NCBI GenBank assembly: GCA_964586975.1
Contig: CAZPJV010000002.1
Location: 1-45,218 of the forward strand
Direction: 5' to 3'
Length of the DNA stretch: 45,218 nt
Source of the DNA: an uncultured Candidatus Saccharibacteria bacterium
GTDB lineage: Bacteria; Patescibacteriota; Minisyncoccia; Phycocordibacterales; UBA9973
Shown one piece after another: positions 3,638-32,749 of this stretch. Within the stretch, counting starts at the first letter, position 1. Each line of letters opens with the position of its first letter. The translations under genes and the position numbers were made by a program. The notes under the pieces are model-generated. The model did not search any database. It saw nothing but the letters and a program-made list of their open reading frames with translations, and had not been told where the DNA came from.

Positions 3638-3702
3638 GGCCCTATCGTCCCTCGGCCGTAGCCCAAGGCTACTAGGCCTATGGGCGAGGCTAACGGTTAG
3701 GA
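3638..3702 (+). other. Truncated tRNA-Glu 5' half with a 41-nt hairpin insertion in the D-loop
   Basis: GGCCCTATCGTC (3638-3649) plus TAACGGTTAGGA (3691-3702) equal nt 1-24 of the intact tRNA-Glu at 3940-3963. They are interrupted by CCTCGGCCGTAGCCCAAGGCTACTAGGCCTATGGGCGAGGC, which has an outer stem CCTCG/CGAGG and an inner hairpin GTAGCC-CAA-GGCTAC. Confidence 0.85.
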
Positions 3703-3706
3703 TTTT

Positions 3707-3961
3707 ATGCATATAGTTTATGTATTAAAAAGTTTGAAGGATAATAATTTATACATAGGTTGTACCTCCAATTTTGACAAAAGATTGGACTATCACAATA
3801 CCGGAAAAGTTGATTCAACAAAAAATCGCAGACCATTCATCCTGGTATATAAAGAAGAATATGATAGTATCTATGAAGCTTTCCGTGCTGAGAAATTTTA
3901 CAAAACAGCAATGGGGAAAAGAAAATTGAAAGAAAAATTGGCCCTATCGTCTAACGGTTAG
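3707..3961 (+). CDS. GIY-YIG nuclease family protein (84 aa, domain only)
   Basis: N-terminal VYVLKS...LYIGCTSNFDKRLDYHN pattern (GIY...YIG...R...H-N) plus a downstream conserved E/K region. The last 7 codons and the stop are encoded by the 5' end of tRNA-Glu. Confidence 0.85.
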   Translation: MHIVYVLKSLKDNNLYIGCTSNFDKRLDYHNTGKVDSTKNRRPFILVYKEEYDSIYEAFRAEKFYKTAMGKRKLKEKLALSSNG

Positions 3962-4011
3962 GACATCGGCTTTTCAAGCCGGTAATCCGGGTTCGATTCC
4001 CGGTAGGGTCA
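3940..4011 (+). tRNA. tRNA-Glu (anticodon TTC), no encoded CCA
   Basis: Acceptor GGCCCTA/TAGGGTC, anticodon loop TTTTCAA, T arm CCGGG-TTCGATT-CCCGG, discriminator A. Confidence 0.9.
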
Positions 4012-4138
4012 CACCTCATATTACACCACATTTATCACACCCTGACAAACTGGAGTTTGTAGGGGTGTTGGTTTGTAGAAAAAATTTTTGCAAAACAAAA
4101 CCCCGCAAAAGAGTTCAGGACCCTAAACTGCGGGGTCG

Positions 4139-4170
4139 CCAGGCACAATGCCTGTGATTTTTTAAAAAAG
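4139..4170 (+). terminator. Possible rho-independent terminator after tRNA-Glu
   Basis: Hairpin CAGGC-ACAA-GCCTG followed by TGATTTTTT. It is preceded by a second hairpin, CCCCGCA...TGCGGGG (4100-4136). Confidence 0.4.
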
Positions 4171-4230
4171 AACTCTTGGCTCTCCCCGCTCCGAACTCGC
4201 TTTGTCGGAGCGGGAGTCTCGCGCGCGACC

Positions 4231-4572
4231 TCACTCGCCGGATGACTGCCGGAAAGTCATGTGCGCCGGGTCGTTAGACTGCCACCGGCGACGCTCCTCG
4301 GCGAGGCCAGAGGTCGCAGGCTCCGCTGGGTCCAGCACAGCGGTCGGGATACCGCTCGGGGCCGCTTCGTACTCCGGAACTTCCACGAGCACGTCGTCCC
4401 CACCCAACTCCCAGTCCTCATGCCAGAGGAAGTATCCGACTCTGTACCCAACAGCCAATAGACACCACCCACGATCGGCCGTCGAAGACAGCCTGCCCTC
4501 GAGGATGCTCCCGTCCCGACGGTGGCATCTCACCACTTTCCCAAACAGCAGACTCCACTCTCGTGTGTGCAT
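4231..4572 (-). CDS. Hypothetical protein (113 aa), strongly GC-rich relative to neighbours
   Basis: Shine-Dalgarno GGAGGTG lies 6 nt before the ATG. Third codon positions are G/C-rich. A hairpin CTCCCGCTCCGA/TCGGAGCGGGAG (4182-4216) follows the stop. The overlapping plus-strand ORF 4202..4615 is S/R/P-rich and looks like frame noise. Confidence 0.6.
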   Translation of the reverse strand: MHTREWSLLFGKVVRCHRRDGSILEGRLSSTADRGWCLLAVGYRVGYFLWHEDWELGGDDVLVEVPEYEAAPSGIPTAVLDPAEPATSGLAEERRRWQSNDPAHMTFRQSSGE

Positions 4573-4604
4573 TCTACACCTCCAGAATTTTTATAACATT
4601 AAAC

Positions 4605-4634
4605 TGGACAATTAGCAATAATCCCCTGTATAAT
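4605..4634 (+). promoter_or_regulatory. Sigma70-like promoter (-35 TGGACA, 18-nt spacer, -10 TATAAT)
   Basis: TGGACA at 4605-4610 and TATAAT at 4629-4634. The ATG at 4643 is only 8 nt past the -10, so the mRNA is probably leaderless. Confidence 0.55.
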
Positions 4635-4642
4635 CAAAAAAC

Positions 4643-5416
4643 ATGCAAAGTTTTGCAAAAGTCAGAATAGTAATTCTCGCCGCGGGCAAGGGCACGCGGA
4701 TGAAAAGCGACCCCGCAAAAAACGGGGCAAGCTTGCCGAAAGCGTTGGTGCTCCTTAGGGGCAAGCCGATGATAAGGTATGTGCTGGAAACGGTGGGGAC
4801 TATATCTTCTCAAAAACCGATTGTGGTCATCGGCCACCAAGCGGATTTGGTCAAAACACAACTGGCTAATTCGTGCGAATATGTCCTGCAAGCCGAACAG
4901 CTCGGCACGGCACACGCGCTCGCCTGCGCGGAAATCAAAGCTCGAGGTGCGGAAGAAATAGTGGTATTGTCAAGCGACCAGCCATTGGTAAAAAAAGAAA
5001 CCATCCTGCATTGTTTGGCCGAACACAAAAAAACTGGTGCCAAAATAACTCTGGCGACGACTGAAGTTCAGGATTTTGAGAGTTGGCAAAAATATTTTTC
5101 GACCCACGGCAGAATTTTAAGAAAAAACAGCAAGATAACCGGTATTCGGGAATATAAAAATGCCGGTGAAGAAGAAAGAAAAATAAAAGAAGTCAATACC
5201 GGTTGCTGCTATGTTTTCGAGAGCGCCTGGCTTTGGGAAAACTTGAAAAAAATAAACAACGACAACGCGCAAAAAGAATACTTGCTGACGGATCTGATAG
5301 AAATTGCCCACAAACAAAATGCCGGGGTGCTCGCTCTCAAAATAAGCCCAGTGGAAGCGCTGGGTGCGAATTCTCAAGAGGAACTTGAAATTTTGGAGAA
5401 GTTAATGGTAGAATAG
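4643..5416 (+). CDS. Sugar-1-phosphate nucleotidyltransferase (GlmU N-terminal domain-like)
   Basis: N-terminal ILAAGKGTRMKS...LPKAL...GKPM signature of the NTP-transferase fold. At 257 aa it lacks the acetyltransferase LbH domain. Confidence 0.8.
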   Translation: MQSFAKVRIVILAAGKGTRMKSDPAKNGASLPKALVLLRGKPMIRYVLETVGTISSQKPIVVIGHQADLVKTQLANSCEYVLQAEQLGTAHALACAEIKARGAEEIVVLSSDQPLVKKETILHCLAEHKKTGAKITLATTEVQDFESWQKYFSTHGRILRKNSKITGIREYKNAGEEERKIKEVNTGCCYVFESAWLWENLKKINNDNAQKEYLLTDLIEIAHKQNAGVLALKISPVEALGANSQEELEILEKLMVE

Positions 5417-5422
5417 CTCACT

Positions 5423-6640
5423 ATGAAAAATCCTTATGAGAACGCCATGGCGCAGTTGGACAAGGCCGCGAAGATTGCCAGCTTCGGGGACGAATTTATT
5501 TCTAAATTGAGACAGCCGGATAGAGATATCCGGATTTCTATTCCGGTCCAGATGGACGACGGCTCCCTGAAAATTTTTGAAGGCTACCGGGTGGAATACA
5601 ACAACGCCCTGGGCCCCTATAAGGGCGGCATCCGCTATCACCAAGATACGGAGATAAACGAAGTCAAGGCGCTGGCCTTCTGGATGGCGATAAAGTGCGC
5701 CGTCGCCGGCATCCCTATGGGCGGCGGCAAGGGCGGGATTACGGTTGACCCAAAAAATTTATCTAAGGGCGAACTGGAACGCCTGTCGCGCGGCTGGGTA
5801 CGGCGACTCGCAGATATTTTAGGCCCGAAGAAAGACGTGCCGGCGCCGGATGTCAATACCACCCCCGAGATAATGGCTTGGATGGCGGACGAATACGGCA
5901 AAATTACCGGCGACCGAAGCGGCGCGGTTATCACCGGCAAGCCGATAGAGGCCGGCGGCTCGGAGGGCCGTGGCACCGCCACCGCCCAAGGCGGATTTTT
6001 CGTCTTTGAAGCTTTGAAAAACGAACTCGGCCTGCCGAAGAAATGCCGAGTGGTCATCCAAGGTTTCGGCAATGCCGGCAGCCACGCGGCCGGCATCTGG
6101 AGCCGGGCGGGACACACTATTATCGCGGTTTCAAATTCGGACGGCGGCGTTTACAACGCAAACGGCCTGGAGGTAGAAGCGTTAACAGAGCATAAAAAAA
6201 AGACCGGCCATCTCAAAGATTTCCCCGGCGCTAAAAATCTCACCAACGCGGAGCTCTTGGCTCTCAAGTGCGACCTCCTCATCCCCGCCGCTTTTGAAAA
6301 TCAAATCACTGCCGAGAACGTAGGCAGGATCAATACAAAAGCTATTCTGGAACTGGCCAACGGTCCGACTGCCCCCGAAGCGGACGAGATATTATTTAAA
6401 AAAAATGTGCCGGTCATACCGGACGTGCTGGCGAACGCCGGCGGCGTGACCGTTTCCTATTTTGAATGGGCGCAAAACTTGAAAGGCGAGCACTGGAGCG
6501 AAAAGGAAGTGTTCGACAAACTCGCGCCCTTGCTGGAAGACTCCGCAAAAAAAATCTCCCAAAAAGCAAAGGAGCTTAAGACCAATATGCGCGCCGCCGC
6601 CTTCGTTCTGGCGCTTGAAAGAATCCAGGCGAAGATGTAG
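5423..6640 (+). CDS. gdhA: Glutamate dehydrogenase (Glu/Leu/Phe/Val dehydrogenase family)
   Basis: Motifs KGGIRYH and GIPMGGGKGG (catalytic Lys region), and Rossmann GFGNAGS. Confidence 0.9.
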   Translation: MKNPYENAMAQLDKAAKIASFGDEFISKLRQPDRDIRISIPVQMDDGSLKIFEGYRVEYNNALGPYKGGIRYHQDTEINEVKALAFWMAIKCAVAGIPMGGGKGGITVDPKNLSKGELERLSRGWVRRLADILGPKKDVPAPDVNTTPEIMAWMADEYGKITGDRSGAVITGKPIEAGGSEGRGTATAQGGFFVFEALKNELGLPKKCRVVIQGFGNAGSHAAGIWSRAGHTIIAVSNSDGGVYNANGLEVEALTEHKKKTGHLKDFPGAKNLTNAELLALKCDLLIPAAFENQITAENVGRINTKAILELANGPTAPEADEILFKKNVPVIPDVLANAGGVTVSYFEWAQNLKGEHWSEKEVFDKLAPLLEDSAKKISQKAKELKTNMRAAAFVLALERIQAKM

Positions 6641-6653
6641 CATTTCTTTATGT

Positions 6654-6703
6654 GCGCGTAGCTCAGCTTGCCCCGCCTGAACTAGGCGGGGTGAAGTAGA
6701 GCG
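6654..6703 (+). other. tRNA D-arm-like fragment A with hairpin inserted in the D-loop
   Basis: GCGCGTAGCTCAGCTTG[CCCCGCCTGAACTAGGCGGGG]TGAAGTAGAGCG. The flanks resemble tRNA positions about 1-25 and no anticodon arm follows. Confidence 0.7.
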
Positions 6704-6734
6704 TAAAAATATGTTATCATTTTGGTTCACAAGG

Positions 6735-6808
6735 GGGCGGTTAGCTCATTTGGCTAGAGCGCGTCGTTGACGTCGACGAGGTAACAAGTTCGAGTCTTGT
6801 ACCGCCCA
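6735..6808 (+). tRNA. tRNA-Val (anticodon GAC), no encoded CCA
   Basis: Acceptor GGGCGGT/ACCGCCC, anticodon stem CGTCG/CGACG with loop TTGACGT, T arm ACAAG-TTCGAGT-CTTGT, discriminator A. Confidence 0.9.
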
Positions 6809-6809
6809 C

Positions 6810-7079
6810 ATGAGTTGTTATGTATATTTGATTCAAAGCAGTTTAGATAAGAGTTTCTATGTTGGCATATCTGAAGATCCATTTAAACGTCTTCATGAGC
6901 ATAATAGCGGTAAATTAAAAAGTACTTCAAGAAAGAAACCATATGCCATGATTTATACAAAAGAATATCCAGATTATAAATCTGCAAGGAAACACGAAAT
7001 TTGGTTGAAAAAGAAAAATTTAAATTATAAATTAAGGTTAGCTCAGCTTGCCCCGCCTAGTTCAGGTGGGGTAAACTAG
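6810..7079 (+). CDS. GIY-YIG nuclease family protein (89 aa, domain only)
   Basis: CYVYLIQS...FYVGISEDPFKRLHEHN pattern. The ATG begins 2 nt after the tRNA-Val discriminator base. The C-terminal 14 codons read through tRNA-like fragment B. Confidence 0.85.
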   Translation: MSCYVYLIQSSLDKSFYVGISEDPFKRLHEHNSGKLKSTSRKKPYAMIYTKEYPDYKSARKHEIWLKKKNLNYKLRLAQLAPPSSGGVN

Positions 7080-7100
7080 AGCGACCTCTTGACGTGTGTC
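7035..7100 (+). other. Degenerate tRNA-Val-like 5' fragment B with hairpin in the D-loop
   Basis: GGTTAGCTCAGCTTG[CCCCGCCTAGTTCAGGTGGGG]TAAACTAGAGCGACCTCTTGACGTG. The D-arm flanks match fragment A and tRNA-Val. TTGAC recalls the Val anticodon loop, but no stem or 3' half follows. Confidence 0.65.
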
Positions 7101-7103
7101 TTT

Positions 7104-8255
7104 ATGAGAATTTTAAGCATTGAAACGAGTTGCGACGAAACCAGTATCGCAGTTATGAAAGCCACGGGCGGTATAACCGATGCTTCGTTCAGAGTGCTGG
7201 CGCATGAAATTTCTTCGCAGGCGGCAATGCACTCTCCTTTCGGCGGGGTTTACCCCTCGCTGGCCAAACGCGAGCATATAAAAAATCTTCCTCTACTTCT
7301 TAATAAAATCCTGAAAAAATTAAAAACTAAAAAAATTGACTTGATTGCGGTCACTTCCGGCCCGGGACTGGAACCGGCATTATGGACCGGCATAGTTTTT
7401 GCGCAGGAACTCGCCAGAAAATGGAAGGTGCCCTTGATACCGGTAAATCATATGGAAGGGCATATCTTTTCTACTTTTGCTAAGGCGGAAAAAAAATTCC
7501 AAATTCCCAATGCCAAATTCCCAATGCTTGCCCTGCTAGTTTCCGGCGGACACACCCAACTCGTGCTTTCAAACCGGTGGCTCAACTATAAAATAATCGG
7601 CGAGACGCTGGATGACGCGGTCGGCGAGGCCTATGACAAGGTTGCGCGGATGCTCGGCTTGCCCTACCCCGGCGGGCCGGAAATTTCAAAGTTAGCGGAG
7701 CAGCTAAGGGCAGAGGGAAAACAATTTTTACGGGGTGTCTCGCAGGCCGACGGGCCGAGAGGCAGCGCTCCGCGAGCACGCGGAGACAGCGACCCCGCAA
7801 AGATTGGTTTTCCCATAGCCCTCCCCCGCCCGATGCTCAAGAGCAAAAATTTTAATTTTTCATATTCTGGGCTAAAAACCGCAGTGCTTTATTTAATAAA
7901 AAAAATTAGCAAATTGGATAAAAAAACCAAAGCGCAAATCGCTCTGGAGTTTGAAAATGCGGCGATTGAATGCCTGACCTATAAAACCGCCCGGGCGATA
8001 GAAAAATATAAAATTAAAACTCTGGTAGTCGGCGGCGGAGTTTCCGCCAACACGCATTTAAAAAGAGAAATCACCCGCCTTCGCCAAGGCTTCGGACGGG
8101 CAAGAAAAAATCTCAAAATTTTCTTTCCGCCGAAAGAACTAACGGGCGACAACGCGCTGATGATAGGCATCGCCGGTTATCTAAATTATTTGAAAAATAA
8201 GAAAAAAGTTCCAAAACCGGAAAGCATAAAAGCGGATGGAAATTTGAGCTTATAG
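7104..8255 (+). CDS. tsaD: tRNA N6-adenosine threonylcarbamoyltransferase TsaD
   Basis: MRILSIETSCDETS start, and the HMEGH, GGHT and GGGVSAN motifs. The ORF-track start at 7089 (TTG) lies in the tRNA-like fragment, so I prefer ATG 7104. It contains an in-frame insertion of about 25 aa before the PRPM motif. Confidence 0.9.
   Translation: MRILSIETSCDETSIAVMKATGGITDASFRVLAHEISSQAAMHSPFGGVYPSLAKREHIKNLPLLLNKILKKLKTKKIDLIAVTSGPGLEPALWTGIVFAQELARKWKVPLIPVNHMEGHIFSTFAKAEKKFQIPNAKFPMLALLVSGGHTQLVLSNRWLNYKIIGETLDDAVGEAYDKVARMLGLPYPGGPEISKLAEQLRAEGKQFLRGVSQADGPRGSAPRARGDSDPAKIGFPIALPRPMLKSKNFNFSYSGLKTAVLYLIKKISKLDKKTKAQIALEFENAAIECLTYKTARAIEKYKIKTLVVGGGVSANTHLKREITRLRQGFGRARKNLKIFFPPKELTGDNALMIGIAGYLNYLKNKKKVPKPESIKADGNLSL
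7728..7801. repeat. GC-rich imperfect palindrome inserted in frame in tsaD
   Basis: Arms TTACGGGGTGTCTCGC and GCGGAGACAGCGACCCCGCAA. It encodes LRGVSQADGPRGSAPRARGDSDPAK, which is absent from E. coli TsaD between GGP..L and FPRPM. Confidence 0.6.
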
Positions 8256-8272
8256 TATGGTATTATTAGGGT

Positions 8273-10525
8273 ATGCTGGACAAACTCAAGAAGCCCTACG
8301 AGCCCCAAAATACCGAAGACAGAATTTACAAGCTCTGGGAAGAGAGCGGTTTTTTCCAGCCCGAGGCTGGTACGCCTTGGGTGCATGCGCCCGAAACTAA
8401 TCTGAATCATGGGAAAACTTTTTCTATCGTTCTGCCCCCGCCTAATGCAACCGGCGTGCTTCACCTCGGCCACACCCTTGAAGTTTCTATGCAGGACACG
8501 ATGATTCGCTACGCGCGCATGCGAGGCAAAAAAACGCTGTGGCTTCCCGGCACCGACCACGCCGCCATCGCCACCGACACCAAAGTGACGAAAATGCTGG
8601 AGAAAGAAGGTCTCCAGAAAAAAGACATCGGGCGGGAAAAATTCTTGGAGCGCGTGGACGCTTTTGTGACTGAAAGCAGAAAAACTATCGTCAGTCAGCT
8701 CCGTAAAATGGGCGCATCTTTGGACTGGTCGCGGGAAGCCTTCACCCTAGACGAACAACGAAATCTGGCCGTCCGCACCGCGTTTAAAAAAATGTATGAG
8801 GACGGGCTAATCTATCGCGGAAATAGAATCGTGAACTGGGACCCCAAGGGCCAAACGGTAATCTCGGATGATGAAATAGTGTATGAAGAAAGAAAAAGCA
8901 AGTTTTATACTTTTAAATACGGTCCGTTTGAAATCGGCACCGCCCGGCCGGAAACGAAATTCGGTGATAAATATGTGGTGATGCATCCGGACGACCCGCG
9001 GTATAAAAAATGGAAGCAGGGAGACAAATTGACGGTGGAGTGGATTAACGGCCCGATTGTAGCGACCATCATTAAGGATGAAATGATTGATATGGAATTC
9101 GGCACCGGGGTCATGACCATTACCCCTTGGCATTCGCATGAAGATTTTGCTCTGGCGGAAAAATATAAACTGAATAAAGAACAAATCATAGACCACCATG
9201 GCAAGCTCCTGCCTATAGCGCAGGAATTCGCCAGCATGAAAATCGCGGAGGCGCGCGAAAAAATTGTTGAAAAATTGAAAGACAAAGGCCTGCTGGTTTC
9301 GGTGGACGAAAATTATATGAACCGAGTGGCTACCGCGGAGCGCACCGGCGGCATGGTGGAACCGCAGATAATGTTGCAATGGTTCGTGGACGTGAATAAA
9401 AAAATCCCTGCGCGGAGCAACCAGTCTCTGAAAGAATTGATGCTGGAGCCGGTGCGGGAAGGTCGGATAAAAATTATGCCGGAGCATTTTGAAAAAGTTT
9501 ATTTTAATTGGATAGAAAATCTGCGGGACTGGTGCATTTCCCGCCAAATCTGGTACGGCCACCGGATTCCGGTGTGGTATCACGAACCTAAATGCGTTCC
9601 CATCCCGGGACGGGAAAAGGAAATAGAAAAATGCGAGGAAATAGTTGTGGGCGAAGGAACCGAAAAATGCCCGCATTGCGACGCCAAATATTTTCAAGAT
9701 GAAGATACGCTGGACACTTGGTTTTCTGCCGGGCTGTGGACTTTTTCCACTCTGGGCTGGCCCGCCTCCGTCAAGACTACGGCGGGTAAACCCAAAAAAA
9801 CTGGGGACTTAGCCCAATTTCATCCAACTAATGTAATTAACCCCGGCTATGAAATTCTTTTTTTCTGGGTGGCGCGAATGATTTTAATGTCGCAGTATTT
9901 GCTCGGAGAAATTCCCTTTGAGACAGTGTATCTCCACGGCATACTCCGCGATTCTAAAGGGCGCAAGTTTTCCAAATCGCTGGACAACGGCGTGGACCCG
10001 CTGGAAATCATCAGGCAATACGGCGCGGATGCCCTGCGCATGTCCATGATAGTGGGCATCGGCCCCGGCGCGGACAGTAAGTTTGATATTCAGAAAGTAA
10101 AAGCTTACAGCAAGTTCGCCAACAAAATTTGGAACGCGGCGCGATTTGTACTGGAAAATACCAAGAATTTTGCGCCTCCGGAAAAACCAATCTATGATGC
10201 AGAAGATAAAAAATCAGACGAGGAATTAAGGGCGCTGATGGGAGAGATTACCGAAGAAATGGACGGGTATAAATTTTACATCGTGGCGGAGAAACTGTAT
10301 CATTATTTCTGGCATACTTTCGCCGATATTATCATTGAGCGTTCCAAAAAGAAAATACAGGAAAATAAAAACGCGGACTCGGCGCGAGTGCTTCTTTTGT
10401 CCCAGCTCACCACTCTGCTGAAAGCTTTGCATCCCTTTATGCCTTTCATTACCGAAGAAATCTGGTCGATGCAAAATAAAAGTTTGTTAATGACAGAACC
10501 ATGGCCTTACCCGGCGGAGATTTAA
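8273..10525 (+). CDS. valS: Valine--tRNA ligase
   Basis: PPPNATGVLHLGH (HIGH region), KFSKSLDN (KMSKS), and the CP1 editing segment TARPET...GTGVMTITPWH. At 750 aa it lacks the C-terminal coiled coil. Confidence 0.92.
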   Translation: MLDKLKKPYEPQNTEDRIYKLWEESGFFQPEAGTPWVHAPETNLNHGKTFSIVLPPPNATGVLHLGHTLEVSMQDTMIRYARMRGKKTLWLPGTDHAAIATDTKVTKMLEKEGLQKKDIGREKFLERVDAFVTESRKTIVSQLRKMGASLDWSREAFTLDEQRNLAVRTAFKKMYEDGLIYRGNRIVNWDPKGQTVISDDEIVYEERKSKFYTFKYGPFEIGTARPETKFGDKYVVMHPDDPRYKKWKQGDKLTVEWINGPIVATIIKDEMIDMEFGTGVMTITPWHSHEDFALAEKYKLNKEQIIDHHGKLLPIAQEFASMKIAEAREKIVEKLKDKGLLVSVDENYMNRVATAERTGGMVEPQIMLQWFVDVNKKIPARSNQSLKELMLEPVREGRIKIMPEHFEKVYFNWIENLRDWCISRQIWYGHRIPVWYHEPKCVPIPGREKEIEKCEEIVVGEGTEKCPHCDAKYFQDEDTLDTWFSAGLWTFSTLGWPASVKTTAGKPKKTGDLAQFHPTNVINPGYEILFFWVARMILMSQYLLGEIPFETVYLHGILRDSKGRKFSKSLDNGVDPLEIIRQYGADALRMSMIVGIGPGADSKFDIQKVKAYSKFANKIWNAARFVLENTKNFAPPEKPIYDAEDKKSDEELRALMGEITEEMDGYKFYIVAEKLYHYFWHTFADIIIERSKKKIQENKNADSARVLLLSQLTTLLKALHPFMPFITEEIWSMQNKSLLMTEPWPYPAEI
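9761..9786. repeat. CCCGCC...GGCGGG hairpin, in frame in valS
   Basis: CCCGCC-TCCGTCAAGACTAC-GGCGGG. It encodes part of ASVKTTAGKPKKTG, which is extra relative to the E. coli ValS GWPE...FHPT segment. Confidence 0.55.
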
Positions 10526-11842: not shown

Positions 11843-12100
11843 TTAATTTTGAAAGTTCTCAAACAGCGAATTGACGCCGTCTAAGCCGCTCTTGGTTCCG
11901 CCATAAATGCCAATGACTTGGTCAATGTAAGGCTGGATGAAATAATACGCGCCGACAGCCGAACCGATAATCAGCGCCCAGTAAACAGCGTGCACTACCC
12001 GCGCCCAAACCATCGAGCGCTTCAGACTGCGAAGAATCTTGTTATTCTCTGCCGCCAGCGCCAAGGTGTCCGCCAGCAATTTCTTGGACTCCGGATCCAT
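11843..12100 (-). CDS. Small membrane protein, unknown function (85 aa)
   Basis: ORF with one central hydrophobic helix (VVHAVYWALIIGSAVGAYYFI). No competing ORF is convincing. Confidence 0.5.
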   Translation of the reverse strand: MDPESKKLLADTLALAAENNKILRSLKRSMVWARVVHAVYWALIIGSAVGAYYFIQPYIDQVIGIYGGTKSGLDGVNSLFENFQN

Positions 12101-13017: not shown

Positions 13018-13251
13018 TTATAGTCCTAGAAGTTTAGCAATTTTAGGCTTATCAAAACCCACAGTGAGCTCATCGCCGATGATAATAACCGGCACGCCCA
13101 GCTGGCCGCTCTTCTGCATCATTTCCTGCCTTTTTTCCAAATCACCGGCCACATCGTGCTCCGTATAAGCTATATTATTCGCCTTAAAAAACTCTTTCGC
13201 CATGTGGCAAAAATGGCAAGTCGGGGTTGAATAAATGGTTACATTAGGCAT
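13018..13251 (-). CDS. Glutaredoxin/NrdH-like thioredoxin-fold protein
   Basis: 77 aa with the CHFC active site in VTIYSTPTCHFCHMAKEF and GVPVIIIG near the C-terminus. Confidence 0.85.
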   Translation of the reverse strand: MPNVTIYSTPTCHFCHMAKEFFKANNIAYTEHDVAGDLEKRQEMMQKSGQLGVPVIIIGDELTVGFDKPKIAKLLGL

Positions 13252-29350: not shown

Positions 29351-32300
29351 TTATAAAACTATATTGATAAGCCTGCCCGGCACATAAATAACTTTCTTGA
29401 TATTTTTGCCGGCGATATGCTTGATGGCTGTTTCGTTGGCCAGAGCTTGTATTTTAACCTTTTCTGCCGGGGCTTCCGCGCTTATCACAATTTCCGCCCG
29501 AACTTTGCCGTTAACCTGCACCGCGATTTTTATTTCCTCATCTTTTATTAAATTTCTGTCCCATTTGGGCCATATTGAAAGACTGATAGATTTTTTCTCG
29601 CCGAGCCCTTGCCAAAGTTCTTCGGCGATGTGGGGAGCAAAGGGCGAAAGAATTTGCAAGAACATTTTAAAATCTTTAATTGAAATCCACTGCGCCCGTT
29701 CCATCTCCGTTGCTAAAATCATCATGGCTGAAATTGCGGTATTGAAACGCATATTTTCTATATCTTCCGTAACTTTTTTAATGGTTTTGTGAAGAATTTT
29801 TTTTAAGGTCAAATCCACCCCTCCCTGTCCCTCCCCAAAGGAGAGGGTTATTCCCCCTCTTTTGGAGGGGGTTAGGGGGAGGTGAAGAATTTTCTGCCCT
29901 ATTTTCCACACTCGTTCCAAAAACCTTCGCGGGCCGACTATCGCCTCTTCGCTCCAGGCAATCGCCTGGTCAAAAGGGCCCATGAACATTTCATAAAGCC
30001 GCAGGGTGTCGGCGCCGTATCTTTTCACGATATCGTCGGGATTAATCACATTGCCGCGTGACTTGGACATTTTTTCACCGCCTTCAGCCAAAATCAGCCC
30101 GTGCGAGGTGCGCTTTTTATATGGCTCACTCGTGGGCACCAATTTCAAATCATACAAAAACTTGTGCCAAAAGCGCGAATAAAGCAGGTGGAGCGTAGTG
30201 TGTTCGTTGCCGCCGTTGTACCAGTCAACCCCTCCCTGGCCCTCCCCCAAGGAGAGGGAATTTTTGTTCCCCTTCCTTGGGAAGGGGTTAGGGGTAGGTC
30301 CAAGCCAGTATTTCAAATTTTTCTTTGAGGCAAACTCTTTACTATTTTGGGGGTTAGCATATCGTAAATAATACCAAGAACTCCCCGCCCAGTTAGGCAT
30401 GGTATCCGTTTCGCGTCTGGCAGGACCTTTGCATTTCGGACATTTGGTATTTACCCATTTGGAAATATTTGCCAAAGGTGACTCGCCTGTTTCTGTCGGC
30501 TGATAATTTTTAATTTTCGGCAAAAGAACCGGCAAATCTTTTTCCGGTACCGGCACCCAAGTATTTGAGCAAGGACTACCCTTGCTCACGCAGAAAACTA
30601 CCGGTATCGGCTCCCCCCAATATCTCTGCCGGGAAAAGACCCAGTCCCGCAGTTTGAAAGTTGTCTTTTCCCTGCCGCCGACAAATCTTACGATTTCCCT
30701 TTTCACTTTTTCAGAATCCATGCCGTCGAATTTGCCGGAATTGGCGAGAATTCCTTCGCCGGTATAAACCTGTTCCTGCCCCTGCAAAATATGCCAGTCG
30801 CGCAGAGAACCTTCAATGTTCATAATTCTTTCTAACTCCGGTTTGGTAACCCAGATTAATTCATGTTTTTCTTTTTCGTCCGGAGTAAGTTCTTTCTGTT
30901 CCCCATTTTTTAATTCAAAATAAAAATTGGAGAAATGCGCGAAACGATTTTCTTTCTTGGGCACGTGGTAAAACTTGCTGTGTGAGCGCGGCAGTTCTTT
31001 CAGTAACTTAAAATTCTGATAGCCGGTTTCTTCCCTGATTTCGCGTTCAACTGCTTGGAGCGGTGTTTCTCCTTCATCTACACCACCCGTTATAAATGTT
31101 ACCCAATCAACTTTTTTCCATTTCAAAACCAAATATTTGTCCTCCGAACAATGCTTTAATATCGCATGTACTGCTTCCCGTTCCACGAACGGCAAATCTT
31201 CTCTAGGATTATCAAAAAAGGTCGGCTCAATTACATTTTTAATCGGCAAACTGTATTTTTTCGCAAATTCAAAATCGCGTTCGTCATGCGCCGGCACAGC
31301 CATAATCGCGCTGGTGCCATAGTCATAAGACACATAGTTCACAACCCATACAGGAATCTCTTCGCCATTCGCAGGATTGATGGCTCGGAGGCCAGTATCT
31401 TTTCCTATTTTTTCCCCGCCTGCCATCGCCTGCGGCTTCAGGCCGTGGCGGGCAGGCTTATTTTCCTCTGATTTTACACCAAAGTCACTGCCCGCTAGTT
31501 TCTTCGCGACCTCCGGAGCAATCGCCAAATAAGTCGCTCCGAAAATCGTGTCCGGGCGAGTGGTGAAAACTTTAATGCCCAATTCAACCTCTCCCTGGCC
31601 CTCTCCCAAGGAGAGGGGGTAATCCGGAAGAGTTTCCAATTTTTTATTTATCCTCCTTATTACATCTGCTAAGTTTTCTAAAACTTCCTCATTTGAAAAT
31701 CGGAGAATGGTATAACCAAGTGTTTCCAGCCGATTGATCCTTTCGGCATCTCTTTCTCTCTGATAATTATGAACACCCCCCTCAATTTCTATAACCAAGT
31801 TTTTCGGAAGACAAAGAAAGTCCACAATAAAATGATCAATTATATGCTGTCTTCTGAAATGATATCTCTGTTTGTTCGCTTTTAGCGCTTCCCATAATTT
31901 CCTTTCAGCTTGAGTGGGGTTCTTTCTCATTTCTAATGCTTTCTCAAAAAGTTCCTTATATACTTCAGCATCAGTGGTGACATAACCCGGCAATGCCCCC
32001 CTTCCTTGGGAAGGGGCTGGGGGTAGGTCTGGGGTTAGGTTCTTTATTTTAAATTCTATCTCTGCCCCCTCGGACTTCCCTATCCAATTTCTTTGCGCAA
32101 GTTTTATGTGCGGCAAGTAGTCCACGGTATCTAAATCTTTATCTAACCTTTCCGCATATTTAGTAATCCCCAGCATCCACTGCTCTTTTTCTTTTTTTTC
32201 CACCGGCGTGCCGCAACGTTCGCAAGCGCCACCCACAACCTCTTCATTGGCCAAACCGATTTTACAGGACGGGCACCAATTAATCGGAATTTTTGCTTTG

Positions 32301-32749
32301 TAAGCCAAACCTTTTTTCAAAAATTGCAAAAATATCCACTGCGTCCACTTGTAGTATTTCGGATCAGTGGTATTTATTTCCCGCGACCAGTCAAAAGAAA
32401 TTCCCAGGGATTTTATCTGCTGGCGGAAAGTATCGCTATTTTTTTTAGTAACCACCCGAGGGTCTTGACCGGTCTTGATGGCGTAGTTTTCCGTCGGCAA
32501 ACCAAACGCGTCCCAACCGATGGGGTAAAGCACATTAAAACCTTCCATCCTTTTTTTTCTGGAAATCACATCCATCCCGATATACGGCCGCGGATGTCCC
32601 ACATGCAACCCGTCGCCGGAAGGATAAGGAAACTCAATCAAGCTGTAATATTTAGGTTGTTTTGATAGATCTTTGGCTTGAAAAACCTTCTTTTCCTCCC
32701 AAATTTTCTGCCACTTTCGTTCCAACCCCAAATGCTCATATTCTTTCAT
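29351..32749 (-). CDS. leuS: Leucine--tRNA ligase carrying five in-frame insertions (three TIR elements, one with a DUF559 domain; one hairpin element; one Nudix domain)
   Basis: HIGH (GDGLHVGHP), KMSKS (KMSKSRGN), CP1 editing motifs (TTRPDTIFGATY, GTSAIMAVPAHDERDFEFA), RDWVFSRQRYWGEPIP, and GGNEHTTLHLLYSRFW. At 1132 aa it is much longer than the roughly 860 aa of E. coli LeuRS. Confidence 0.95.
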   Translation of the reverse strand: MKEYEHLGLERKWQKIWEEKKVFQAKDLSKQPKYYSLIEFPYPSGDGLHVGHPRPYIGMDVISRKKRMEGFNVLYPIGWDAFGLPTENYAIKTGQDPRVVTKKNSDTFRQQIKSLGISFDWSREINTTDPKYYKWTQWIFLQFLKKGLAYKAKIPINWCPSCKIGLANEEVVGGACERCGTPVEKKEKEQWMLGITKYAERLDKDLDTVDYLPHIKLAQRNWIGKSEGAEIEFKIKNLTPDLPPAPSQGRGALPGYVTTDAEVYKELFEKALEMRKNPTQAERKLWEALKANKQRYHFRRQHIIDHFIVDFLCLPKNLVIEIEGGVHNYQRERDAERINRLETLGYTILRFSNEEVLENLADVIRRINKKLETLPDYPLSLGEGQGEVELGIKVFTTRPDTIFGATYLAIAPEVAKKLAGSDFGVKSEENKPARHGLKPQAMAGGEKIGKDTGLRAINPANGEEIPVWVVNYVSYDYGTSAIMAVPAHDERDFEFAKKYSLPIKNVIEPTFFDNPREDLPFVEREAVHAILKHCSEDKYLVLKWKKVDWVTFITGGVDEGETPLQAVEREIREETGYQNFKLLKELPRSHSKFYHVPKKENRFAHFSNFYFELKNGEQKELTPDEKEKHELIWVTKPELERIMNIEGSLRDWHILQGQEQVYTGEGILANSGKFDGMDSEKVKREIVRFVGGREKTTFKLRDWVFSRQRYWGEPIPVVFCVSKGSPCSNTWVPVPEKDLPVLLPKIKNYQPTETGESPLANISKWVNTKCPKCKGPARRETDTMPNWAGSSWYYLRYANPQNSKEFASKKNLKYWLGPTPNPFPRKGNKNSLSLGEGQGGVDWYNGGNEHTTLHLLYSRFWHKFLYDLKLVPTSEPYKKRTSHGLILAEGGEKMSKSRGNVINPDDIVKRYGADTLRLYEMFMGPFDQAIAWSEEAIVGPRRFLERVWKIGQKILHLPLTPSKRGGITLSFGEGQGGVDLTLKKILHKTIKKVTEDIENMRFNTAISAMMILATEMERAQWISIKDFKMFLQILSPFAPHIAEELWQGLGEKKSISLSIWPKWDRNLIKDEEIKIAVQVNGKVRAEIVISAEAPAEKVKIQALANETAIKHIAGKNIKKVIYVPGRLINIVL
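29816..29884. repeat. TIR-family palindromic element (cargo-less, 69 bp), in frame in leuS
   Basis: CACCCCTCCCTGTCCCTCCCCAAAGGAGAGGG-TTATT-CCCCCTCTTTTGGAGGGGGTTAGGGGGAGGTG. It encodes LTPSKRGGITLSFGEGQGGV. Confidence 0.85.
30227..30299. repeat. TIR-family palindromic element (cargo-less), in frame in leuS
   Basis: AACCCCTCCCTGGCCCTCCCCCAAGGAGAGGG-AATTTTTGTT-CCCCTTCCTTGGGAAGGGGTTAGGGGTAGGT. It encodes PTPNPFPRKGNKNSLSLGEGQGG immediately before VDWYNGGNEH. Confidence 0.85.
30800..31190 (-). other. Nudix hydrolase domain embedded in LeuRS
   Basis: GGVDEGETPLQAVEREIREETGY (31019-31087) fits the Nudix box GX5EX7REUXEEXGU at every position. Flanking beta-strand-like segments (AVHAILKH..YLVLKW; FYFEL; LIWVT) complete a domain of about 130 aa that E. 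coli LeuRS lacks at this point. Confidence 0.85.
31414..31457. repeat. CTGCCCGCC hairpin element, in frame in leuS CP1
   Basis: On the minus strand it reads GCCTGCCCGCC-ACGGCCTGAAGCCGCAGGCGAT-GGCAGGCGGGG and encodes KPARHGLKPQAMAGGEK. The murJ copy encodes a similar MPARQLAGGDGEK. Confidence 0.6.
31586..32040. mobile_element. TIR-bounded element carrying a DUF559 (Vsr-like) endonuclease domain, in frame in leuS
   Basis: The arm 31586-31620 and the reverse complement of 31996-32028 match at 25 of 33 positions. The interior encodes PTQAERKLWEALK...FRRQHIIDHFIVDFLCLPKNLVIEIEGGVH...RDAERINRLETLGYTILRFSNEEV, which is the DUF559 hallmark pattern. Boundaries are approximate. Confidence 0.8.

Follow-up and report, generated by a model that had tools for sequence, protein, structure and literature searches.

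A hairpin-marked tRNA-Val gene with an inserted GIY-YIG nuclease gene and second tRNA-Val: a probable homing-type cassette in Candidate Phyla Radiation bacteria

The window analysed here is the whole stretch of 45,218 nucleotides (nt) at positions 1 to 45,218 of contig CAZPJV010000002.1 (assembly GCA_964586975.1), from an uncultured Candidatus Saccharibacteria bacterium of the Candidate Phyla Radiation (CPR, or Patescibacteria). Between gdh and tsaD it carries an intact tRNA-Val(GAC) gene followed at once by an open reading frame (ORF) of 89 amino acids (aa) for a GIY-YIG nuclease, and this pair is bracketed by two direct repeats, copies A and B, each resembling a tRNA D-arm interrupted by a GC-rich hairpin. 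Comparison with related loci suggests that the arrangement is probably a selfish cassette of the homing type, which invades tRNA genes and rescues the tRNA that it destroys. In the feature list below the intact tRNA is called the cargo tRNA, the tRNA gene represented by the two broken pieces is called the resident tRNA, and numbers beginning with L denote comparison loci.

6615..6643, plus strand: promoter-like site, TTGAAA-17-TAGCAT, inside the 3' end of gdh (consensus scan; presumed function)
6652..6703, plus strand: fragment A, 5' part of the resident tRNA-Val that was split (homologues of the fragment in L005 and L020)
6671..6691, no strand: hairpin A, CCCCGCCT-GAACT-AGGCGGGG, loop orientation 1, in-frame PPELGG, same as the L020 hairpin
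6704..6734, plus strand: spacer of 31 nt from fragment A to the cargo tRNA
6735..6808, plus strand: intact cargo tRNA-Val(GAC), no encoded CCA (ARAGORN, Rfam)
6810..7079, plus strand: GIY-YIG ORF of 89 aa (Pfam PF01541, E=1.3e-14), its ATG 2 nt after the tRNA discriminator
7039..7083, plus strand: repeat copy B, D-arm and hairpin of the 3' piece of the resident tRNA-Val, beginning at about tRNA position 8
7051..7071, no strand: hairpin B, CCCCGCCT-AGTTC-AGGTGGGG, loop orientation 2, reading PPSSGG, same as hairpin A of L005
7084..7096, plus strand: what is left of the anticodon arm of the resident tRNA-Val (ACCTCTTGACGTG, anticodon GAC; alignment with L007)
7104..8255, plus strand: tsaD (Pfam TsaD, E=2.5e-77), which directly follows tRNA-Val in empty sites

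The direct repeats were found to span 6659-6703 (copy A) and 7039-7083 (copy B). They are 45 nt long, 82% identical and 380 nt apart from start to start, and the longest exact run that they have in common is 20 nt; a preliminary description of this DNA had recognised them as D-arm-like repeats with hairpins, placing both starts 2 nt further to the left. Their first 19 nt, TAGCTCAGCTTGCCCCGCC, are shared by both copies, occur exactly twice in the 45-kb window and did not occur in 100 shuffles. Each copy is a canonical tRNA D-arm (TAGCTCAGCTTG...TAGAGCG) broken by an 8-bp GC stem, hairpin A being CCCCGCCTGAACTAGGCGGGG and hairpin B CCCCGCCTAGTTCAGGTGGGG. The two stems are alike except for one C-to-T change, and the 5-nt loops, GAACT in A and AGTTC in B, are together with the closing T-A pair exact reverse complements of each other, as had been reported. 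Both are predicted to fold very stably when compared with shuffled sequences (-28.5 kcal/mol, z -4.1 for A; -26.7 kcal/mol, z -4.8 for B), and neither piece was detected as a tRNA (RF00005) cloverleaf by ARAGORN or Infernal. Contigs assembled independently from SRR12113422, SRR12113424 and SRR12113430 were base-for-base identical to the window over 3984-7780; misassembly across the repeats, which the preliminary description had allowed for, is therefore excluded.

The content between the repeats is also as first described, with ARAGORN, Rfam and Pfam in agreement. The tRNA-Val(GAC) was called at 6735-6809 by ARAGORN and at 6735-6808 by Rfam (61 bits); its discriminator is A6808, next comes C6809, and the ATG of the ORF lies at 6810. 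The ORF scored 54.6 bits against a curated cut-off of 22.6 for PF01541, and the gene caller had annotated a 43-aa fragment in its place. Fragment A opens with an acceptor 5' strand (about 6652-6658, GTGCGCG), continues as the hairpin-bearing D-arm and stops near tRNA position 26. It starts at the native distance from the promoter-like site, which itself occupies the position of the resident tRNA-Val promoter, and spacers of 20-80 nt lie at the place equivalent to the 31-nt spacer in L005, L007, L010, L020 and L028. On the 3' side copy B is followed by the 13-nt anticodon-arm remnant and then by the tsaD start; about 45 nt of piece B, from the 3' side of the anticodon stem through the acceptor 3' end, are deleted in the window.

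Comparison loci came from two scans. Species-representative genomes scanned with the nuclease alignment gave 32 loci, from Nomurabacteria, Minisyncoccia, Berkelbacteria, Kerfeldbacteria, Roizmanbacteria, Falkowbacteria and others, and a metagenome scan with TsaD gave 80 related loci. At 19 of the 32 nuclease loci an intact tRNA precedes the ATG by no more than about 40 nt (the gap ranges from -1 to 39 nt and is 9 nt or less in 15 of the 19), and the tail of the ORF is followed by the rest of a second tRNA with the same anticodon, without the acceptor 5' strand. The tRNAs involved are Val-GAC, Thr-CGT/TGT/GGT, Phe, Lys, Ile and Met, all with a D-arm of the GCTCAG..GAGC type. In the window, as in L005, L007, L009, L010, L020 and L028, the intact tRNA is preceded by a fragment like copy A, with acceptor 5' strand and hairpin-bearing D-arm. 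In L005 and L020 the acceptor strand of fragment A is complementary (7/7) to the 3' strand with which B ends, and when the A acceptor was joined to B, minus the hairpin and TGAA, ARAGORN returned a perfect tRNA-Val (L005) and a perfect tRNA-Thr (L020); no tRNA was detected in the same two joins with the hairpin retained. A and B therefore derive from a single resident tRNA, broken within the D-arm into two pieces that overlap, and the earlier suggestion that a cassette of tRNA-Val and nuclease had disrupted a resident tRNA-Val is borne out.

The intact tRNA is unlike the split one in L005 (stems GGGCGGT/ACCGCCC vs GCGCGAT/ATCGCGC), and in L020 the acceptor and other stems of the cargo and resident tRNAs are also unlike. 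Hence the intact tRNA is cargo and not a fresh duplicate. In the window, the cargo tRNA-Val is 97% identical to the resident tRNA-Val of L056/L049, and fragments A and B are of the GCGCGG..ACCCC type. The single 'intact' tRNA of L008 is a chimera of both types with a C2-C71 mismatch, the product that would be expected if A had recombined with the cargo. We also considered the hairpin pieces as functional tRNAs with removable inserts; this seems not to hold, since they are always accompanied by an intact tRNA of the same anticodon, and since B has no acceptor 5' strand. At L019 (942-1720), the ORF and a tRNA-Phe copy with three hairpins were found to be tandemly duplicated, each ORF lying directly after a tRNA 3' end.

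The TsaD loci show what the site looks like when it is empty. In about 25 of them a single tRNA-Val(GAC) lies upstream of tsaD with no nuclease ORF, and in a subset (e.g. L040, L042, L044, L062, L065, L096) the end of gdh is directly upstream of this tRNA. The tsaD ATG follows the tRNA-Val discriminator by 1-8 nt in at least 20 related contigs (...CCCAC|ATGAAAATT), and L040, L042 and L044 carry a promoter-like site, TTGAAA-N17-TAATAT, at the same distance upstream of tRNA-Val as the site in the window. Pieces A and B thus sit where relatives hold one tRNA-Val between gdh and tsaD, which is the comparison that the preliminary description had proposed for this junction. Among the 80 TsaD loci a nuclease gene was found at L098 only, in a tRNA-Glu cassette. 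The site is filled with the same neighbours in L007 and L008, both with tsaD and valS downstream and L007 with gdh upstream. Piece B of L007 continues GACCCCTTGACGTGGGGTAGGCCACAGGTTCAAATCCTGTATCGCCCAC to the acceptor 3' end and abuts the tsaD ATG like the single tRNA of the empty sites, which identifies the decayed anticodon region noted earlier after copy B as a truncated tRNA-Val anticodon arm. The gdh/tRNA-Val/tsaD position is therefore polymorphic for presence and absence, the window, L007 and L008 having the cassette and about 25 related contigs lacking it.

The tight junction between tRNA and ATG is kept in homologous cassettes. As the same junction is native to tRNA-Val and tsaD in the empty sites, it is not special to the nuclease. 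The tsaD starts which abut a tRNA leave no room for a ribosome-binding site, and start codons placed in this way seem to be a normal expression layout in this CPR clade. Release of a leaderless nuclease mRNA by RNase Z, as the preliminary description had suggested, would be plausible. In L098 and L109, tsaD starts directly after tRNA-Glu. Two other contigs, L037 (about 2394-2500) and L107 (about 150-268), hold a partial duplicate of the tsaD 5' end with hairpin-like sequence just upstream of the real tsaD start, and these may represent another type of insertion at the junction. L053 (about 2383-2420) has a decayed 5' tRNA-Val duplicate without hairpin (GCGCGGTTAGCTGTTTTGGTAGGTCATTGACCTAG) directly upstream of its intact resident tRNA-Val, which may be the relic of an earlier event.

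The 89-aa protein belongs to the minimal UPF0213/Slx1 type, with a single catalytic domain and with UPF0213 and Slx1 proteins as its nearest relatives. In a profile search of the PDB, the best matches among solved structures were 1YWL (1.3e-9) and 1ZG2 (3.6e-9), with SLX1 at about 3e-4 (2.7e-4). Y6, Y17, G19, R27, H31, N32 and E63 did not vary among 36 sequences sharing 55-81% identity with the window protein, and these positions cover all catalytic residues of GIY-YIG enzymes, namely the Tyr of GIY, the Tyr and Gly of YIG, the Arg, the His/Asn and the metal-binding Glu. The nuclease therefore looks active. At 89 aa it does not have the classical I-TevI/Seg architecture, in which a catalytic domain and a C-terminal DNA-binding domain make up about 200 aa or more. 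No NCBIfam family was found for the 89-aa ORF; a sister ORF in the window (3707-3961; 55.4 bits for PF01541), described below, matched TIGR01453 at 19.8 bits, below the 56-bit cut-off. Exact-protein look-ups of the 89-aa ORF and of TsaD gave no match.

What the preliminary description had not seen is that copy B is the conserved 3' end of the nuclease ORF itself, and that the whole family shares the D-arm plus hairpin as a component of the element. Translation of the ORF runs on through copy B (...LAQLAPPSSGGVN*), which supplies codons 77-89 and the stop. A database search gave 76 homologues in CPR bacteria, most of them exactly 89 aa long with the tail LAQLAPP-xx-GGVK*, in which LAQLAPP is encoded by the 5' half of the D-arm and the left stem, xx by the loop, and GGVK with the stop by the right stem and TGAAG-TAG(AGC). 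Copy A, read in the same frame without an ORF ahead of it, gives VAQLAPPELGGVK*, the family consensus. In six loci, identity at third codon positions was 0.85 in the D-arm/hairpin tail vs 0.44 in the body of the ORF, with the two loop codons varying freely, and the tail is therefore constrained as a nucleic-acid element. The association with tRNAs is wider still. An exhaustive profile search gave 11,672 clusters at E<=1e-3 and 810 at E<=1e-10, and in many cluster representatives a tRNA 5' end encodes the C-terminal peptide (ALSSNG, SSAG, GAIV), or the protein starts with the translation of a tRNA 3' half; by a rough count of patterns, 84 of 221 representatives have such tRNA-derived ends. These tRNA-encoded protein ends extend the association well beyond the 89-aa subfamily.

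We next consider the hairpins, defining a unit as cTTG/TTTA-CCCCGCC-loop-GGCGGGG-TGAA/TAAA. Within 400 nt of nuclease ORFs there were 63 units in 33.8 kb (1.86 per kb), and elsewhere in the same loci 15 in 218 kb (0.069 per kb, 27-fold lower); 382 kb of cassette-free tsaD loci gave 11 loose matches (0.03 per kb), none with typical flanks. In these loci the hairpins are therefore not a generic dispersed repeat, the possibility that the preliminary description had left for copies A and B, being instead concentrated near nuclease ORFs. Extra units beyond the D-loop were observed in the anticodon loop/variable region and in the T-loop of piece B, and L016 and L019 have three units each. A rule that the extra hairpins lie strictly in tRNA loops was dropped, as L011 and L015 have some at the 3' border of the anticodon stem. 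In L027, L031 and L035, the nuclease ORF lies between the arms CCCCGCCAAT and ATTGGCGGGG as if these were terminal inverted repeats, and in L029 (2213-2330) an intact tRNA-Thr lies between two hairpin arms inside a D-arm fragment. The arms can therefore bracket cargo. A terminator scan found no T-run after the hairpins, and plain intrinsic terminators were rejected for this reason. A palindrome that looks like a hairpin element tolerated within a coding gene was seen in valS (8273-10525, plus strand), where CCCGCC-TCCGTCAAGACTAC-GGCGGG followed by TAAA at 9761-9786 encodes an in-frame insert of 10 aa (ASVKTTAGKP) that is missing in Thermus thermophilus ValRS (1GAX).

The loops could be sorted from the protein tails into 17 of orientation 1 (E/D-L/I) and 12 of orientation 2 (x-S), the two classes being reverse complementary (e.g. 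EL is GAACTA and SS is AGTTCA). The nearest relative had the same loop class in 18 of 29 cases, vs 14.4 expected at random. P0001 (NS) and P0076 (EL) have opposite loops, with the N-terminal 12 residues and the C-terminal stretch up to the loop identical. Since both orientations are scattered among close relatives, flipping must be recurrent. The asymmetric flanks CTTG...TGAAG never flip, and only the part between the perfect arms does. In L005, L007, L020 and L028 the loops of A and B have the same orientation, and the window is the exception. Of the earlier reading of the flipped loop, the commonness of both orientations and the recurrence of the flip are upheld, while its two routes, inversion and re-insertion, both remain compatible with the sequences; recurrent minute inversion within the stem would be the simplest account, with re-insertion as the alternative.

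Signs of mobility are seen in the nuclease itself, whose core is 74-80% identical between genomes in which TsaD is 50-62% and ValS 53-71% identical, and whose closest relative among the 32 genome loci (80.5%) lies at a tRNA-Ile gene. Taking these results together, we consider it probable that the locus holds a selfish homing-type cassette, and a mechanism can be proposed. The nuclease would cut naive tRNA genes that share the TAGCTCAG..TAGAGC D-arm, and repair would copy the cassette in, with the D-arm/hairpin repeats acting as short, portable homology. A possible route is synthesis-dependent repair primed from the 12-nt and 7-nt halves of the D-arm; the same structure would result if a circular form integrated at a D-arm with a hairpin. 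With the cargo tRNA the host would stay viable. The hairpins may be cis elements, either as sites for a structure-specific Slx1-like nuclease or as homology breakers which block deletion of the ORF by recombination between the repeats, and the opposite loops of A and B in the window may have arisen by minute inversion within a hairpin. The ORF would be expressed from the tRNA transcript, driven by the resident tRNA promoter, possibly as a leaderless mRNA after processing of the tRNA 3' end.

Several points weigh against such a homing cassette. The 89-aa protein has no DNA-binding domain, unlike the proven GIY-YIG homing enzymes, and sequence-specific cutting is therefore doubtful. The cargo tRNA has an intact D-arm, so hairpin insertion alone cannot explain how the filled allele would be immune; hairpin insertion as simple immunity was accordingly dropped as the whole explanation. 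To our knowledge, classical homing does not make direct repeats of 45 nt. tRNAs are so conserved that the 97% identity of the cargo to a tRNA of another lineage would be weak evidence of transfer, and L012 and L030 have a cargo and a piece B of one tRNA type, which fits local duplication or gene conversion no less than import. The TsaD loci contained no near-identical pair of strains with and without the cassette, the closest TsaD being 72% identical. Finally, searches of a viral collection with the D-arm/hairpin 19-mer and with relatives of the nuclease did not find the cassette, so no vector is known.

There is a variant which we regard as possible though doubtful, namely that the nuclease and the GC-rich palindromes form a new class of structure-guided mobile element, in which the enzyme recognises a hairpin or cruciform and not a long DNA sequence. 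Hairpin cutting would then drive the spread of hairpins into tRNA-gene loops, the insertion of nuclease and rescue tRNA, and the flipping of loops, and the system would be a nuclease analogue of the hairpin-guided REP/RAYT or IS200/IS605 systems, specialised on CPR tRNA genes. It is unlikely, in our judgement, that the D-arm/hairpin pieces are mainly RNA signals whose conservation reflects expression and not DNA mobility. Candidate roles would be a 5'/3' structure protecting the nuclease mRNA, or an acceptor/T-arm helix between A and B that lets RNase P and RNase Z free the tsaD message. The high predicted stability, the conserved stem with its free loop, the start of ORFs and tsaD at tRNA 3' ends without space for a ribosome-binding site, and the complementarity that the A 5' strand retains to the B 3' strand in L005 and L020 all agree with such roles. 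The window nevertheless has intact ORF and tsaD with a piece B that lacks the T-arm and acceptor strand, the hairpins lack the T-run of a terminator, and RNA roles of this kind would complement a mobile cassette without excluding it.

Quite unlikely is a reading in which the hairpins are autonomous miniature palindromic elements unrelated to the nuclease, the opposite loops being two insertions at a D-loop hotspot. Units do occur at several positions of the pseudo-tRNAs (anticodon loop/variable region and T-loop), a similar in-frame hairpin insert of 10 aa is found in valS, hairpin A of the window equals that of L020 while hairpin B equals hairpin A of L005, and comparable elements are known from organelles (PMC4478555, PMC2800124). 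This reading does not sit well with the 27-fold density of units near nuclease ORFs and their near absence from 382 kb of cassette-free DNA, nor with the A and B loops of L005, L007, L020 and L028, which are the same or nearly so and share one orientation, as by duplication. Flanks that never flip fit inversion within the stem, and the ORFs between hairpin arms in L027, L031 and L035 tie the hairpin to the nuclease. We consider it very improbable that the locus is a local rearrangement, in which tRNA-Val was duplicated in place, a host GIY-YIG gene riding on its transcription came to lie between the copies, the spare copy decayed and the hairpins arose by chance. It would account for L012 and L030, where the intact tRNA equals piece B from the D-stem onward, for L028, which duplicates even 26 nt of upstream flank, for the tandem duplication of ORF and B in L019, and for the tRNA|ATG junction, this being a native expression layout of tsaD. 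It would not account for intact and split tRNAs of unlike type in the window, L005, L007 and L020, with A pairing with B and not with the cargo, or for the same ORF family and D-arm/hairpin boundary at six tRNA isoacceptor families. About 25 relatives moreover have the site empty, synonymous sites of the D-arm/hairpin are conserved, as they would not be in a decaying pseudogene, and between the same genomes TsaD and ValS have diverged further than the nuclease. As for an assembly artefact or chance similarity, there is practically no room for it: the three identical independent assemblies, the zero expectation from shuffles and the same layout in dozens of unrelated assemblies refute it.

The closest known system is SegB of phage T4, one of the GIY-YIG homing endonucleases that T-even phages encode in free-standing genes. 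The site recognised by SegB contains the conserved T-psi-C motif of tRNAs, and the enzyme drives co-conversion of its own gene and neighbouring tRNA genes (PMC2330249). Like SegB, the gene studied here lies among tRNA genes and outside introns, a conserved tRNA motif (the D-arm) is the apparent target, and a tRNA travels along. SegB-type enzymes differ in having a separate DNA-binding domain, which the 89-aa protein lacks, and SegB has a phage host, without a split tRNA gene or hairpin-marked tRNA fragments, whereas the present cassette is in a bacterial chromosome. In its single-domain size and catalytic residues the protein is like UPF0213/YhbQ (COG2827) and Slx1. In eukaryotes, Slx1 works with Slx4 on branched DNA. 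For UPF0213/YhbQ and Slx1 proteins no association with tRNA genes or hairpins was found described in the literature.

The disruption of archaeal tRNA genes (Sugahara et al. 2012, PMC3293823) and integrase elements are similar in that an intact and a displaced partial tRNA flank the insert, and partial tRNA duplicates at the flanks, by which integrase islands are recognised, are present here as fragments A and B. Integrase elements have a recombinase, a short att overlap and a split of the 3' half, whereas a whole cargo tRNA, a split in the D-arm and inserted hairpins are found here, and the insert (6704-7038) contained no tyrosine or serine recombinase, just the tRNA and the 89-aa GIY-YIG ORF. 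A group I intron of tRNA differs too, as the insert is in the D-arm and not the anticodon loop, and an Rfam gathering search of the window gave only six tRNAs. The hairpins resemble GC clusters of yeast mitochondria, hairpins of sponge mitochondria, REP/REPIN sequences and Rickettsia palindromic elements in being short GC-rich palindromes of an AT-rich genome, present at several sites and tolerated in genes (PMC4478555, PMC2800124, PMC3733652). Unlike these miniature elements, they are concentrated at tRNA-derived sequence beside one nuclease family; no HUH (Y1)/RAYT transposase lies next to them, the adjacent ORF being GIY-YIG only. As in the minute inversions of plastids (e.g. PMC6824564), a loop between perfect arms flips repeatedly and independently with its flanks co-linear. 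Plastid minute inversions are described in non-coding spacers, while here the flip alters two tail codons (EL to SS) at the boundary of the element. Hairpin-marked tRNA pieces together with a rescue tRNA and a minimal nuclease are seen in none of the systems compared, and no published description of the arrangement was found among open-access papers and bioRxiv preprints.

If the homing-type cassette is real, tRNA genes of CPR/Patescibacteria would be the target of widespread selfish nuclease cassettes which are apparently undescribed, and the replacement copy carried along would solve the problem of invading an essential single-copy gene. It would explain the tRNA fragments, and the odd small genes for a 'GIY-YIG nuclease family protein' next to tRNAs, that metagenomic genomes show in their thousands. 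It would also point to one reason why tRNAs are missed or falsely called, and part of the UPF0213 family, which is large and uncharacterised, would gain a function. With an enzyme of 89 aa, a hairpin of 21 nt and a D-arm of 19 nt, the cassette offers a small and testable system in which to study target finding by a nuclease that has no DNA-binding domain. Junctions of tRNA and ATG, those at tsaD included, would make leaderless translation dependent on tRNA processing directly testable in these organisms.

A sister cassette of a second layout was found at tRNA-Glu in the window, in the order A, ORF, intact tRNA, with or without B, as also in L032-L034 and L098. Its features are as follows.

3638..3702, plus strand: sister fragment A1, the 5' piece of tRNA-Glu (GGCCCTATCGTC...CTAACGGTTAGGA), layout as in L098
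3707..3961, plus strand: sister GIY-YIG ORF of 84 aa (Pfam PF01541, E=7.7e-15), 35% identical to the 89-aa ORF
3940..4012, plus strand: intact tRNA-Glu(TTC) (ARAGORN, Rfam)

The D-loop of fragment A1 holds a GC-rich hairpin of 41 nt (3650-3690) that is unrelated in sequence. The sister ORF ends ...ALSSNG*, with its last 7 codons and stop within the intact tRNA-Glu, and no piece B was found downstream of this tRNA. In L098, a tRNA-Glu cassette of this type is located ahead of tsaD. Small ORFs beside tRNA-Phe and tRNA-Arg (11843-12100, 13018-13251) were considered as further cassettes and rejected, one having no Pfam hit and the other being a glutaredoxin. The tRNA-Glu cassette is adjoined by a GC-rich island (4180-4580) with two long hairpins at 4091-4140 and 4184-4215 and a minus-strand ORF of 113 aa (4231-4572) that has no Pfam match; this gene was also called in the independent contigs L002-L004. 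Elsewhere in the window, palindromes of the form CCCC(T/C)TCC...GGA(A/G)GGGG were observed at 29853-29871, 30269-30287 and 31998-32016, within an ORF of 1132 aa on the minus strand (29351-32749).

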